Part shown: piece by piece, positions 37,388-55,192 of the stretch
Layout of the letters: each line of letters starts with the position of its first letter
Numbering within the stretch: position 1 is the first letter of the stretch
Assembly (NCBI RefSeq): GCF_016903815.1
Contig: NZ_CP069973.1
Length of the DNA stretch: 64,000 nucleotides
Direction: 5' to 3' (one strand)
Source of the DNA: Escherichia coli
GTDB taxonomy: Bacteria; Pseudomonadota; Gammaproteobacteria; Enterobacterales; Enterobacteriaceae
Notes under the pieces: model-generated
Told to the model about the DNA's origin: nothing
The model's input: the letters and a program-made list of their open reading frames with translations, nothing else
Databases searched by the model: none
Made by a program: the position numbers and the translations under genes

Positions 37388-38096
37388 CACAGAAAACCCC
37401 CAGCTAGGCTGGGGGTTCCGGAAAGCTTTCAGCTTTGAGCCAGTTATTAAAACCCCTTTTGATTTGTTAAAACACCTTGCGGTCTGGCAACTGCAAGTGT
37501 CAAACAAGAAATCAAAAGGGGGTCCCAATGGGGAACGAAAAGAGCTTAGCGCACACCCGATGGAACTGTAAATATCACATAGTTTTTGCGCCAAAATACC
37601 GAAGACAGGTGTTCTACAGAGAGAAGCGTAGAGCAATAGGCAGTATTTTGAGAAAGCTGTGTGAGTGGAAAAGCGTACGGATTCTGGAAGCTGAATGCTG
37701 TGCAGATCATATCCATATGCTTGTGGAGATCCCGCCCAAAATGAGCGTATCCGGGTTTATGGGATATCTGAAAGGGAAAAGCAGTCTGATGCTTTACGAG
37801 CAGTTTGGTGATTTGAAATTCAAATACAGGAACAGGGAGTTCTGGTGCAGAGGGTACTACGTCGATACAGTGGGTAAGAACACGGCGAAGATACAGGATT
37901 ACATAAAGCACCAGCTTGAAGAGGATAAAATGGGAGAGCAGTTATCGATTCCCTATCCGGGCAGCCCGTTTACGGGCCGTAAGTAACGAAGTTGGATGCA
38001 AATGTCAGATCGTGTGCGCCTGTTAGGGCGCGGCTGGTAAGAGAGCCTTATAGGCGCATTTGAAAAACCTCCGGCTATGCCGGAGGATATTTATTT
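37388..38096 (+). mobile_element. IS200-type insertion sequence (IS200/IS605 family); ends approximate
   Basis: Y1/HuH transposase ORF; perfect 8-bp stem hairpin CCCCCAGC-TAG-GCTGGGGG (37397-37415) typical of the IS200 left end; second stem CCCCTTTT...AAAAGGGG (37447-37519) ending just before the RBS/start; kup-rbsD spacer is about 700 bp longer than the roughly 200 bp I remember for K-12. Confidence 0.7.
37528..37986 (+). CDS. tnpA: IS200 transposase TnpA (HuH Y1 transposase, 152 aa from MGNEKSLAHTRWNCKYH)
   Basis: recognised IS200 TnpA with HuH motif (ADHIHMLVEIPP) and catalytic Tyr region; ORF track starts further upstream. Confidence 0.9.
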   Translation: MGNEKSLAHTRWNCKYHIVFAPKYRRQVFYREKRRAIGSILRKLCEWKSVRILEAECCADHIHMLVEIPPKMSVSGFMGYLKGKSSLMLYEQFGDLKFKYRNREFWCRGYYVDTVGKNTAKIQDYIKHQLEEDKMGEQLSIPYPGSPFTGRK

Positions 38097-42036: not shown

Positions 42037-42164
42037 TAGTTTTAATCAGGTTGTATGACCTGATGGTGACATAAATACGTCATCGACAGATGAACGTGTA
42101 ATATAAAGAAAAGCAGGGCACGCGCCACCCTAACACGGTGGCGCATTTTATGGACATCCCGAAT

Positions 42165-43094
42165 ATGCAAAACGCAGGCAGCCTCGTTGTTCTTGGCAGC
42201 ATTAATGCTGACCACATTCTTAATCTTCAATCTTTTCCTACTCCAGGCGAAACCGTAACCGGTAACCACTATCAGGTTGCATTTGGCGGCAAAGGCGCTA
42301 ATCAGGCTGTGGCTGCTGGGCGTAGCGGTGCGAATATCGCGTTTATTGCCTGTACGGGTGATGACAGTATTGGTGAGAGCGTTCGCCAGCAGCTCGCCAC
42401 TGATAACATCGATATTACTCCGGTCAGCGTGATCAACGGCGAATCAACAGGTGTGGCGCTGATTTTTGTTAATGGCGAAGGTGAGAATGTCATCGGTATT
42501 CATGCCGGCGCTAATGCTGCCCTTTCCCCGGCGCTGGTGGAAGCGCAACGTGAGCGTATTGCCAACGCGTCAGCATTATTAATGCAGCTGGAATCACCAC
42601 TCGAAAGTGTGATGGCAGCGGCGAAAATCGCCCATCAAAATAAGACTATCGTTGCGCTTAACCCGGCTCCGGCTCGCGAACTTCCTGACGAACTGCTGGC
42701 GCTGGTGGACATTATTACGCCAAACGAAACGGAAGCAGAAAAGCTCACCGGTATTCGTGTTGAAAATGATGAAGATGCAGCGAAGGCGGCGCAGGTACTG
42801 CATGAAAAAGGTATCCATACTGTACTGATTACTTTAGGAAGTCGTGGTGTATGGGCTAGCGTGAATGGTGAAGGTCAGCGCGTTCCTGGATTCCGGGTGC
42901 AGGCTGTCGATACCATTGCTGCCGGAGATACCTTTAACGGCGCGTTAATCACGGCGTTGCTGGAAGAAAAACCATTGCCAGAGGCGATTCGGTTTGCCCA
43001 TGCTGCCGCTGCGATTGCCGTAACACGTAAAGGCGCACAACCTTCCGTACCGTGGCGTGAAGAGATCGACGCATTTTTAGACAGGCAGAGGTGA
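42165..43094 (+). CDS. rbsK: ribokinase (309 aa from MQNAGSLVVLGS)
   Basis: recognised RbsK; ORF track extends upstream. Confidence 0.93.
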   Translation: MQNAGSLVVLGSINADHILNLQSFPTPGETVTGNHYQVAFGGKGANQAVAAGRSGANIAFIACTGDDSIGESVRQQLATDNIDITPVSVINGESTGVALIFVNGEGENVIGIHAGANAALSPALVEAQRERIANASALLMQLESPLESVMAAAKIAHQNKTIVALNPAPARELPDELLALVDIITPNETEAEKLTGIRVENDEDAAKAAQVLHEKGIHTVLITLGSRGVWASVNGEGQRVPGFRVQAVDTIAAGDTFNGALITALLEEKPLPEAIRFAHAAAAIAVTRKGAQPSVPWREEIDAFLDRQR

Positions 43095-43097
43095 TGC

Positions 43098-44090
43098 TTG
43101 GCTACAATGAAAGATGTTGCCCGCCTGGCGGGCGTTTCTACCTCAACAGTTTCTCACGTTATCAATAAAGATCGCTTCGTCAGTGAAGCGATTACCGCCA
43201 AAGTTGAAGCGGCGATTAAAGAACTCAATTACGCGCCATCAGCCCTGGCGCGTAGCCTCAAACTCAATCAAACACATACCATTGGCATGTTGATCACTGC
43301 CAGTACCAATCCTTTCTATTCAGAACTGGTGCGTGGCGTTGAACGCAGCTGCTTCGAACGCGGTTATAGTCTCGTCCTTTGCAATACTGAAGGCGATGAA
43401 CAGCGGATGAATCGCAATCTGGAAACGCTGATGCAAAAACGCGTTGATGGCTTGCTGTTACTGTGCACCGAAACGCATCAACCTTCGCGTGAAATCATGC
43501 AACGTTATCCGACAGTGCCTACTGTGATGATGGACTGGGCTCCGTTCGATGGCGACAGCGATCTTATTCAGGATAACTCGTTGCTGGGCGGAGACTTAGC
43601 AACGCAATATCTGATCGATAAAGGTCATACCCGTATCGCCTGTATTACCGGTCCGCTGGATAAAACTCCGGCGCGCCTGCGGTTGGAAGGTTATCGGGCG
43701 GCGATGAAACGTGCGGGTCTCAACATTCCTGATGGCTATGAAGTCACTGGTGATTTTGAATTTAACGGCGGGTTTGACGCCATGCGCCAACTGTTATCAC
43801 ATCCGCTGCGTCCTCAGGCCGTCTTTACCGGAAATGACGCTATGGCTGTTGGCGTTTACCAGGCGCTGTATCAGGCAGAGTTACAGGTTCCGCAGGATAT
43901 CGCGGTGATTGGCTATGACGATATCGAACTGGCAAGCTTTATGACGCCACCATTAACCACTATCCACCAACCGAAAGATGAACTGGGGGAGCTGGCGATT
44001 GATGTACTCATCCATCGGATAACCCAGCCGACCCTTCAGCAACAACGATTACAACTTACTCCGATTCTGATGGAACGCGGTTCGGCTTAG
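43098..44090 (+). CDS. rbsR: LacI-family ribose operon repressor
   Basis: N-terminal [26 protein letters not shown]. Confidence 0.95.
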
Positions 44091-45483
44091 ATTTACGCTG
44101 TCTTTTGATCAAATTATTACCATCGGTTGTTTTCAGAAGCATGAACATTGCTGCTGAAGCAACAGTAATAATGCCCATCGTGATAAACGTATAGTGGAAT
44201 TGTTCGACTGTCGTTGTGCCTTCCATCCCTTCATAAACGCGAAGGACGGCCGCACTTACAGCAACGCCTAAACTGATAGACAGTTGCTGCGTGACCGCCA
44301 GAACACTGTTACCGCTGCTGGCGTTGTCATCGGTCAGATCGGCAAGTGTGATGGTATTCATTGCGGTAAATTGCGTCGACATAGCCATCCCTAATATAAA
44401 CAACGGCAAGATCAGCATCCATATCGCCATTGCTGGTGATTGCAAAGAGAACTGAGCGATCATTAGCCCAATAATCACCGTGATCCCCACTAACGTATGG
44501 CGATAGCCCAGACGACGTAAGACTTGGGTAACCATCGATTTTGCAATAATGGAACCTAACGCTGTCGGTGCCATCATACAGCCGGCAATAAACGCCTGAT
44601 AACCAAATCCTACCTGTAACATCAATGGCATAAGGAACGGTACACAGCCGGTCCCCAGACGGGTTGCAATATTGCCTACGATACCGATCGAGAAAGTGCG
44701 GGTTTTAAATAAATCTAATGAAATTAATGGGTTTGGCGTGCGTCGTGCATGGAGAATATAGAGAAGCAGTAACCCGATGCTGGTGACAATTACCGTCAAG
44801 GCAATCCAACTGGCGACAATCTTTTCCCCGAATAGCTCTATTCCGCTTGAGAAGAGAACAAGGCTAAGGCCAAACAGCAAAAAGCCAGTGATATCGAATC
44901 TGCGTCGTGCGGTGGTGAAATTGGGCATATGTTTGCGCGCGTAAAGAAGGCCCGCAATACCTATGGGGATATTGATTAAAAATATCCAGTGCCAGGTTGC
45001 CCAGGTGACCAGCACGCCGCCAAGAACGGGGCCTAAAATTGGCCCCACCAGACCCGGCATGGCGACAAAATTCAATACAGGAAGAAGCTCATTACGAGGA
45101 TAAGCGCGCAGTAAGGCCAGCCGAGCAACAGGCATCATCATTGCGCCGCCTATCCCCTGAATAACCCGGAAGACAACCAGCTGTGGTAGCGAGTTAGAAA
45201 GTGCGCAGGCCAGAGAACCCAACGTGAACAGACTCACGGCAAGGGTAAATATGCGACGCGTACCGAAGCGATCGGCTAGCCATCCGCTTACCGGAATAAG
45301 CATCGCCACCGTCAGCGTATAACTGATGATGGCTGATTGCATCGCGAGAGGAGAACGATTAAGGCTATGAGCGATTGCGGGTAAGGCGGTATTCAGAATA
45401 GTGGCATCAAGTGCCTGCATGAAGAAGGCCATCGCCGCGATCCACGGCAAACCCGCCATACTGCGCTTCTTTTTATCGCTCAT
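44056..45483 (-). CDS. hsrA: MFS transporter (YieO/HsrA)
   Basis: 475-aa MFS membrane protein; 3' end overlaps rbsR 3' end by 35 bp (convergent). Confidence 0.85.
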
Positions 45484-45505: not shown

Positions 45506-46198
45506 TCACTTATCAGGTGAGCGTAGCAGCGCCTGACAAGCTTTAAATGCCGCGTCGCCATCGCTTTGGATAATCGCGTCAACAATCGCCTGGTGCAGAT
45601 CCAGCTTTATCACTGTGTCGCTGGTAATTGACGTGAAGTAAGTGTGATAAACCGAATGGAATAGCGAGGCGAATGAGGTCAAAAACGGATTGGCGCTCAT
45701 TTCATAGATATGCTCATGCCAAGCCATATCGACCTCAATCCAGCGTTCACGGCGAAAGTTCTCTTTTAATGCCACCATTTCGGCCATTAACGTATTGAGA
45801 TGCGCCTTCTGTTCCGCGGTGCCAACCGTTGCAGCCAGTAGGCAAGCTTGCGGCTCCAGACAGATACGCATAACCAGAAAGTGATCGATGACCTGATGAA
45901 AGTTCTCTTCTGTCATCCACCAGGTAAGCAATTCCTGATCAAGAAAATTCCAGTTTGATTGTGGCATGACCCGGGTACCAATTCGCGGTCGCGGTAAAAC
46001 CATCCCTTTTGCCGTTAACGTTTTGACCGCTTCGCGTACCGCTGTACGACTCACTCCAAATTGCTCGCCCAGCTCAATCTCACCAGGCAAAATGGTGCCG
46101 GGTTCATATTCACCTTTTAAGATGCGTTGCGCCAGCTTCTCAGCCAGAACATACGAAAGGTTTTTCTGTGCAGCTAACTGTTGTGCGCTTAAAGGCAT
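45506..46198 (-). CDS. yieP: GntR/FadR-family transcriptional regulator
   Basis: 230 aa, N-terminal wHTH. Confidence 0.85.
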   Translation of the reverse strand: MPLSAQQLAAQKNLSYVLAEKLAQRILKGEYEPGTILPGEIELGEQFGVSRTAVREAVKTLTAKGMVLPRPRIGTRVMPQSNWNFLDQELLTWWMTEENFHQVIDHFLVMRICLEPQACLLAATVGTAEQKAHLNTLMAEMVALKENFRRERWIEVDMAWHEHIYEMSANPFLTSFASLFHSVYHTYFTSITSDTVIKLDLHQAIVDAIIQSDGDAAFKACQALLRSPDK

Positions 46199-46678: not shown

Positions 46679-48220
<1,542 letters not shown>

Positions 48221-48305
48221 CCTTAAAGAAGCGTTCTTTGAAGTGCTCACACAGATTGTCTGATAGAAAGTGAAAAGCAAGGCGTCTTGCGAAGCAGACT
48301 GACAC

Positions 48306-48381
48306 GTCCCCTTCGTCTAGAGGCCCAGGACACCGCCCTTTCACGGCGGTAACAGGGGTTCGAATCCCCTAGGGGACGCCA
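48306..48381 (+). tRNA. gltU: tRNA-Glu (anticodon UUC), spacer tRNA
   Basis: GTCCCCTTCGTCTAGAGGCCCAGGACACCGCCCTTTCACGGCGGTAACAGGGGTTCGAATCCCCTAGGGGACGCCA. Confidence 0.97.
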
Positions 48382-48575
48382 CTTGCTGGTTTGTGAGTGA
48401 AAGTCACCTGCCTTAATATCTCAAAACTCATCTTCGGGTGATGTTTGAGATATTTGCTCTTTAAAAATCTGGATCAAGCTGAAAATTGAAACACTGAACA
48501 ACGAAAGTTGTTCGTGAGTCTCTCAAATTTTCGCAACACGATGATGAATCGAAAGAAACATCTTCGGGTTGTGAG

Positions 48576-51479
<2,904 letters not shown>

Positions 51480-51571
51480 ACAACGCCGAAGATGTTTTGG
51501 CGGATGAGAGAAGATTTTCAGCCTGATACAGATTAAATCAGAACGCAGAAGCGGTCTGATGAAACAGAATT

Positions 51572-51691
51572 TGCCTGGCGGCCGTAGCGCGGTGGTCCCA
51601 CCTGACCCCATGCCGAACTCAGAAGTGAAACGCCGTAGCGCCGATGGTAGTGTGGGGTCTCCCCATGCGAGAGTAGGGAACTGCCAGGCAT
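51572..51691 (+). rRNA. rrfC: 5S ribosomal RNA
   Basis: TGCCTGGCGGC...CTGCCAGGCAT, 120 nt. Confidence 0.97.
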
Positions 51692-51743
51692 CAAATTTAG
51701 CAGTAAGCCGGTCATAAAACCGGTGGTTGTAAAAGAATTCGGT

Positions 51744-51820
51744 GGAGCGGTAGTTCAGTCGGTTAGAATACCTGCCTGTCACGCAGGGGGTCGCGGGTTC
51801 GAGTCCCGTCCGTTCCGCCA
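51744..51820 (+). tRNA. aspT: tRNA-Asp (anticodon GUC)
   Basis: GGAGCGGTAGTTCAGTCGGTTAGAATACCTGCCTGTCACGCAGGGGGTCGCGGGTTCGAGTCCCGTCCGTTCCGCCA. Confidence 0.97.
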
Positions 51821-51828
51821 CCCTAATT

Positions 51829-51904
51829 AGGGGCGTAGTTCAATTGGTAGAGCACCGGTCTCCAAAACCGGGTGTTGGGAGTTCGAGTCTCTCCGCCCCT
51901 GCCA
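51829..51904 (+). tRNA. trpT: tRNA-Trp (anticodon CCA)
   Basis: AGGGGCGTAGTTCAATTGGTAGAGCACCGGTCTCCAAAACCGGGTGTTGGGAGTTCGAGTCTCTCCGCCCCTGCCA. Confidence 0.97.
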
Positions 51905-54840: not shown

Positions 54841-55192
54841 AAGCCCTCCTTGAGTCACCATTATGTGCATAAGATATCGCTGCTGTAGCCCGCTAATTCG
54901 TGAATTTTAGTGGCTGATTCCGGTTTATTTGTGTAAGTGAAGTTGAGTTGTTCTGGCGGTGGAATGATGCTCGCAAAAATGCAGCGGGCAAAGGATGAAC
55001 TACGAGGAAGGGAACAACATTCATACTGAAATTGAATTTTTTTCACTCACTATTTTCTTTTTAAAAAACAACAATTTCTCTTGAAATTATTAAAGACATC
55101 ATAAAAATAGGCCAAAAAATATCTTGTGCTATTCGCAAAATCTATGGTAACTCTTTAGGCATTCCTTCGAACAAGATGCAAGAAAAGACAAA

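Follow-up and report, generated by a model that had tools for sequence, protein, structure and literature searches.

The window, a stretch of 64,000 nucleotides from the Escherichia coli contig NZ_CP069973.1, carries the ribose repressor gene rbsR and the transporter gene hsrA as convergent neighbours. Their coding regions share 35 bp tail to tail at 44056-44090, as read from both the list of open reading frames and the raw sequence. Upstream of hsrA lies yieP, and the two form one operon (PMC11340327). The genes and features of the junction are given below by their positions in the window.

43098 to 44090, plus strand: rbsR, ribose operon repressor of the LacI family, 330 aa; TTG start, TAG stop at 44088-44090; Pfam LacI and Peripla_BP_3.
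44056 to 45483, minus strand: hsrA (old name yieO), MFS transporter, 475 aa; TAA stop as the complement of 44056-44058; Pfam MFS_1 over residues 17-406.
44056 to 44090, both strands: tail-to-tail coding overlap of 35 bp in phase (123:132), from direct reading of the sequence.
44059 to 44088, minus strand: HsrA residues 466-475, a lineage-specific C-terminal extension antisense to RbsR codons, from comparison with species that have a 4-bp overlap.
45506 to 46198, minus strand: yieP, regulator of the GntR/FadR type, upstream of hsrA and source of minus-strand transcription into the junction.
43750 to 43840 (approximate), minus strand: region of Rho-dependent termination of hsrA-strand transcripts (Adams et al. 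2021, PMC7815308, Supplementary file 2).
44068 to 44091, no strand assigned: p19-captured, RNase III-cut double-stranded RNA of 22 bp (Huang et al. 2020, PMC7373196, Table S3, entry 'hsrA rbsR').

The 3' end of a coding region is fixed by the first in-frame stop codon and both frames are anchored by homology, so that a mis-called stop has no room at this junction. That both frames encode real proteins is seen from the identity of RbsR to PDB entry 9ny7 over 330 aa and its alignment with PurR up to residue 329, from the Pfam matches of both products listed above, and from orthologues in 80 species. The reference stop codons were checked, and RefSeq gives the same ends and the identical 35-bp overlap in strain 7/2 and in K-12, to which the 801 bp around the junction are 100 and 98.4% identical, respectively. 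The overlap reported by the first-pass annotation is therefore confirmed by the open reading frames, the raw sequence and the RefSeq ends alike, and no other in-frame stop or corrected hsrA end removes it. That the 3' end of hsrA or rbsR was mis-called and the proteins do not really overlap is exceedingly improbable. Nothing positive speaks for it beyond the general experience that long annotated overlaps are sometimes mispredictions, but these usually affect start codons and not stops. The stops here are unambiguous, homology fixes the frames up to the tails, and the same ends recur in more than 5,400 genomes and several genera.

Two further annotation details of the genes were recorded. The TTG start of rbsR is annotated 3 nt past the rbsK stop (TGA at 43092-43094), with an in-frame ATG three codons on at 43107. 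The gene at 44056-45483 was named 'mdtD: multidrug transporter subunit MdtD' by PGAP in every genome examined. The true mdtD we take to belong to the mdtABCD-baeSR operon, elsewhere, and the name given to hsrA looks like a paralogue mis-naming.

Within the overlap, position 1 of the rbsR codons faces position 1 of the hsrA codons, position 2 faces position 3 and position 3 faces position 2, an arrangement that Lillo & Krakauer denote as phase (123:132). A silent third-position change in rbsR consequently falls on the second base of an hsrA codon, and vice versa. The two protein ends encoded here are of different kinds. According to the PurR alignment and Pfam, the RbsR residues form the conserved end of the LacI/PurR fold, and the HsrA residues are a polar tail after the last hydrophobic helix, well past the MFS_1 match that ends at residue 406.

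The 801-bp junction stretch was found in 5,414 and the 55-nt junction in 5,413 of the 5,426 complete E. coli genomes. These 55 nt, with the overlap at their centre, had the same sequence in 4,411 of 5,414 records, the remainder having 95-99% identity. Two natural variants illustrate how edits in 44056-44090 alter both proteins, which is relevant when rbsR or hsrA is engineered or deleted. In STEC299, T replaces C at 44078, which has no effect on RbsR but puts His in place of Arg469 of HsrA (R469H). In WY517-2, an in-frame deletion of 15 bp (44058-44072) takes out TPILM of RbsR together with the hsrA stop, leaving an RbsR of 325 aa, an HsrA of 486 aa and an overlap of 68 bp. A larger deletion was seen in E. 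coli JNE181771 (2252-4338 of locus L003; about 42930-44150 of the window). It runs from the 3' part of rbsK through the whole of rbsR into the 3' end of hsrA, and the annotation gives both genes flanking it as truncated pseudogenes.

One genome per species was scanned, which gave 80 Enterobacteriaceae loci or, together with the window, 81, and hsrA and rbsR were convergent neighbours in all 80 scanned loci. Overlap lengths were determined by walking each frame from its start, since tblastn aligned through stop codons. In three loci (L055, L083 and L080) the tblastn lengths of 124, 79 and 40 bp were such artefacts, and frame walking gave a 4-bp overlap in each. Over the 81 loci the junction ranged from a 3-bp gap to a 53-bp overlap, with no spacer longer than 3 bp, and the states were distributed as follows.

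35-bp overlap: 35 of 81 loci
4-bp overlap: 26 of 81 loci
2-bp gap: 7 of 81 loci
9-bp overlap: 6 of 81 loci
53-bp overlap: 5 of 81 loci
24-bp overlap: 1 of 81 loci
3-bp gap: 1 of 81 loci

The 35-bp state was found in Escherichia, Salmonella, Citrobacter, Intestinirhabdus, Enterobacter and Leclercia, and the 53-bp state in Lelliottia and Huaxiibacter. The commonest state outside the E. coli group was the 4-bp shared stop (TTAA, TTAG, CTAA or CTAG), which occurred in Raoultella, Pluralibacter, Pseudocitrobacter, Trabulsiella, Yokenella, Franconibacter, Siccibacter and Buttiauxella. Kosakonia had the 9-bp overlap, and Kluyvera and Phytobacter the 2-bp gap. The first-pass annotation had considered the overlap probably conserved. 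This holds within E. coli and also in Escherichia, Salmonella, Citrobacter and Enterobacter, but the length of 35 bp is not family-wide, as 4 bp, 9 bp or a gap of 2-3 bp takes its place in many genera. With a spacer of at most 3 bp in all loci, the missing space for a terminator is a property of the whole family and not peculiar to the 35-bp state. Two database records from the scan call for a remark: the enterobacterial hsrA-rbsR locus of the 'Chryseobacterium sp. 18061' record (L036) is almost identical to that of 'Citrobacter sp. 18056' (L028). Both cluster with the Klebsiella-like 4-bp clade and not with Citrobacter, and the records are probably mislabelled or contaminated.

When the loci were aligned on the rbsR stop, a conserved hsrA GATGG stood 35, 34 and 36 nt from that stop in the 4-bp, 35-bp and 9-bp states, respectively. 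The three frame classes thus differ by single-base indels, which are located in a Lys-rich, A-rich stretch immediately before the stop. In the 4-bp state the hsrA strand reads ...GCT TAA, with TTA (the rbsR TAA) offset by one base as in the classic shared-stop tetramer, and HsrA terminates in ...KERHK(A/R)*. These alignments suggest an origin of the 35-bp overlap by a one-base shift beside the shared stop. Loss of one base, CTTAAG to CTAAG, would keep an rbsR stop as TAA becomes TAG, leaving that protein unchanged. The same loss would destroy the hsrA stop, shift the HsrA frame and add about 10 codons. The extended HsrA would then read the antisense of the last, conserved RbsR strand (LTPxLMERGS) to a TAA opposite the Leu-Thr codons. 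A run of about 10 codons before the next stop after a frameshift is about what chance gives, and the overlap's length is not a question of statistical significance.

Other states differ from their neighbours by the loss of a stop codon. In Kosakonia oryzendophytica the hsrA stop was lost (TGA to GGA), extending the overlap from 9 to 24 bp. In Lelliottia it was the rbsR stop that was lost (TAG to TCG), by which the overlap grew from 35 to 53 bp and RbsR gained six residues. A neighbour-joining tree of both proteins placed the 35-bp state in two clades, parted by a clade with the 4-bp and gap states; the deep branches of the locus tree are very short. Because the HsrA tail is simply a conserved piece of RbsR read in antisense, frameshifts that arose independently would produce almost identical tails, and the likeness of the tails is no proof of a single origin.

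Constraint on the tail was assessed through rbsR third-position diversity on the codon alignment, as N-terminal indels distort counting from the gene end. In species with the 35-bp overlap, the diversity of the last 10 rbsR codons was 0.252 compared to 0.437 gene-wide, and only 1.3% of 10-codon windows were as low. In species with a junction of at most 9 bp, the last 10 codons had 0.48 against 0.465 gene-wide, which is the 55th percentile of windows. That the synonymous diversity of rbsR is reduced only where the overlap exists argues further against mis-called 3' ends, and this reading is close to refuted. Second positions of the HsrA tail had a diversity of 0.229 compared to 0.03 in the HsrA body, and thus change about eight times faster, although still slower than silent sites. 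K466, P467, P471, S472, E473 and E475 are the steadier residues. The pattern is suggestive of weak purifying selection on the predicted HsrA tail, and it is suggestive only, coming from a sample of ten codons in related species. By the same comparison, the tail is probably translated.

As the first-pass annotation had stated, the junction has no space for an intergenic terminator. A scan with a consensus pattern gave no site resembling a terminator up to about 380 nt from the junction, and 200-nt stretches folded no better than shuffled sequences on either strand (z of -0.78 and -0.69). Rfam returned no RNA family at the junction. The C-rich Rho loading regions looked for by composition were uninformative, the skews being mild. 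A bidirectional intrinsic terminator was considered as a candidate and rejected, as scan and folding gave no G+C-rich hairpin with a U tract at or near the junction. Elsewhere in the window, Rfam matches comprised the STnc410 sRNA, the Hfq-binding STnc490, the 5'UTR element Rev39 and a complete rrn operon that includes tRNAs and StyR-44 (19448-19605, 37395-37518, 55122-55411 and 46679-51901).

With no spacer, each mRNA must end within the other gene. For the hsrA strand, published data place this end at a Rho region with its peak at MG1655 3938923 on the minus strand, classed as antisense to rbsR, with a Rho score of 2.78 and a p of 7.6e-6 (PMC7815308). Using an offset of 3895130 between MG1655 and window positions, inferred from the gene ends, the peak lies at about 43793 in the window, about 263 nt past the hsrA stop. 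Downstream and upstream coverage were 32 and 102 without bicyclomycin and 143 and 164 with it (PMC7815308), and the greater read-through with bicyclomycin that marks Rho dependence was thus found on the hsrA strand in these data. On the plus strand, the same data contain neither a Rho region downstream of rbsR nor, from rbsR to the rrn leader, any Term-seq 3' end (PMC7815308).

Transcripts of the rbs operon encounter candidate ends well before the junction. In the gap between rbsB and rbsK, at about 42120-42148 of the window, a GC-rich hairpin with a U tract directly follows rbsB. The 3' end at MG1655 3937278 is presumably that of RbsZ, the sRNA derived from the rbsB 3'UTR. In Term-seq this 3' end after rbsB was very strong and had the top score in its neighbourhood (PMC7815308). 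The start of rbsK in the list of open reading frames (GTG at 42138) falls inside this terminator; RefSeq starts the gene at 42165. The 5' part of rbsR contains an 8-bp perfect hairpin, ATCGCTTC-GTCAGT-GAAGCGAT, within 43171-43195 on the plus strand. A Term-seq 3' end at MG1655 3938325 lies 98 nt into rbsR and 3 nt past this hairpin, and about 60 nt beyond that 3' end, about 160 nt into rbsR, follows a Rho region at MG1655 3938387 (about 43257 in the window) with a score of 3.77 (PMC7815308). Hairpin, 3' end and Rho region together suggest premature termination inside rbsR. Given the strong 3' end after rbsB and the 3' end and Rho region early in rbsR, much rbs transcription in LB probably ends before the junction.

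Some transcription of both strands nevertheless reaches the overlap. The double-stranded RNA captured with p19 maps with a plus-strand read at 44070-44091 and a minus-strand read at 44068-44089, leaving 2-nt 3' overhangs. Its presence in the overlap indicates that both strands are transcribed across it and that they pair in vivo. Its abundance was low, with 1.85 and 2.72 reads per million (PMC7373196). The rbsR-hsrA pair is also listed among 165 convergent excludons of E. coli that were seen in half or more of 58 RNA-seq sets of MG1655 (Sanmartin et al. 2025, PMC12288877). The antisense read-through that the first-pass annotation proposed to check is hence borne out by the published ExcludonFinder list, the double-stranded RNA and the Rho-dependent termination antisense to rbsR, all of which bear on transcripts of both strands crossing the overlap. 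A second RNase III-cut double-stranded RNA captured with p19 had about 6-11 reads per million (PMC7373196). It corresponds to 45709-45730 inside yieP, with one mismatch to this strain and about 1.6 kb past the rbsR stop. It implies some plus-strand (antisense) RNA there, either from rbs read-through or from a separate antisense promoter.

The first-pass annotation thought it possible that transcription of one gene interferes with the other. The overlapping transcripts raise the question of whether the spacer-free junction is kept because yieP-hsrA and rbs operon transcription counteract one another, either by polymerase collision or by RNase III cleavage of the paired 3' ends. Such a functional excludon is unlikely. 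Its listing in the published excludome would support it, but the criterion of ExcludonFinder automatically scores any coding overlap as a transcript overlap. RNase III-cut RNA does occur inside the overlap, yet it is rare at the read counts given above. In its favour, the hsrA strand runs about 263 nt into antisense rbsR before the Rho stop, but much of the plus-strand transcription ends ahead of the junction, after rbsB and early in rbsR. The absence of a spacer in every one of the 81 Enterobacteriaceae loci is in its favour and could reflect selection for transcript overlap, which is a point against regarding the overlap as incidental. The length and sequence of the overlap, however, drift freely among genera, and no anticorrelated expression of the pair was found in the literature searched. 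In its most specific form, yieP-hsrA read-through, limited by Rho and cleared by RNase III, would lower RbsR and tune derepression of the ribose operon, and strong rbs transcription would damp hsrA; we regard this working excludon as quite improbable. If a functional excludon were present, RbsR levels, and hence ribose use, would be tied to the expression of YieP and HsrA.

By far the most probable reading is that rbsR and hsrA form a genuine, already annotated convergent overlap, left as a side product by drifting stop codons where the junction was never spaced. In the published data, Rho halts the hsrA-strand transcripts about 260 nt into antisense rbsR, and the complementary 3' ends form a small amount of double-stranded RNA that is cut by RNase III. 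According to this by-product reading, the pairing of RNA at the junction would be a tolerated side effect and not a control device, and any effect of the overlap on expression is probably small and incidental.

The pair closely resembles other convergent overlapping genes of prokaryotes, in which the shift of a stop codon has made the 3' ends of two real genes, one on either strand, overlap. In E. coli K-12, convergent coding overlaps number 58 by one count and 75 by another. Among convergent overlaps in general, the 4-nt class is the modal one, and phase (123:132) is the commonest (49%) for those of at least 5 nt (PMC2174442, PMC4161906). The first-pass annotation had called the arrangement unusual, which these counts contradict, as the phase found here is the commonest for long overlaps. 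The 4-nt relatives of rbsR/hsrA use the same four shared-stop tetramers as known pairs, and the 35-bp state has their (123:132) phase. A change of stop codon is the accepted origin of convergent overlaps (Lillo & Krakauer 2007, PMC2174442; Huvet & Stumpf 2014, PMC4161906), and one of these papers already pointed out that any terminator of such a pair must sit inside the partner gene. In contrast to typical cases, the stop at rbsR/hsrA appears to have been displaced by a one-base frameshift beside the shared stop and not by a point mutation of the stop, and the junction has at least 7 length states among genera. Nothing essential differs.

The likeness to two other systems is partial. As in an excludon (a concept of Sesto et al. 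2013; ExcludonFinder, PMC12288877), the transcripts of opposed neighbours overlap, double-stranded RNA is processed by RNase III and the pair is listed in the excludome. Classic excludons, however, are marked by a long antisense UTR and by genes of opposed function whose expression is demonstrably mutually exclusive, whereas for rbsR/hsrA such antagonism and a functional link of ribose regulation to HsrA are hypothetical. Like the sites of bidirectional intrinsic terminators, the junction is the meeting point of two convergent transcription units. It differs from them in having no G+C-rich hairpin flanked by A and U tracts, and termination on the hsrA strand is Rho-dependent and takes place within the neighbouring gene.

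The overlap, its excludon listing and the RNase III-cut RNA of rbsR/hsrA were already known, and the arrangement is neither unusual nor new. The reconstruction of the history of the junction is a small addition of detail. In itself the overlap, which is present in every reference annotation, is of little importance. It serves as a worked example of how a one-base change beside a shared stop may add to a protein a tail taken from the antisense of its neighbour, and of how such a junction keeps shifting among related genera.
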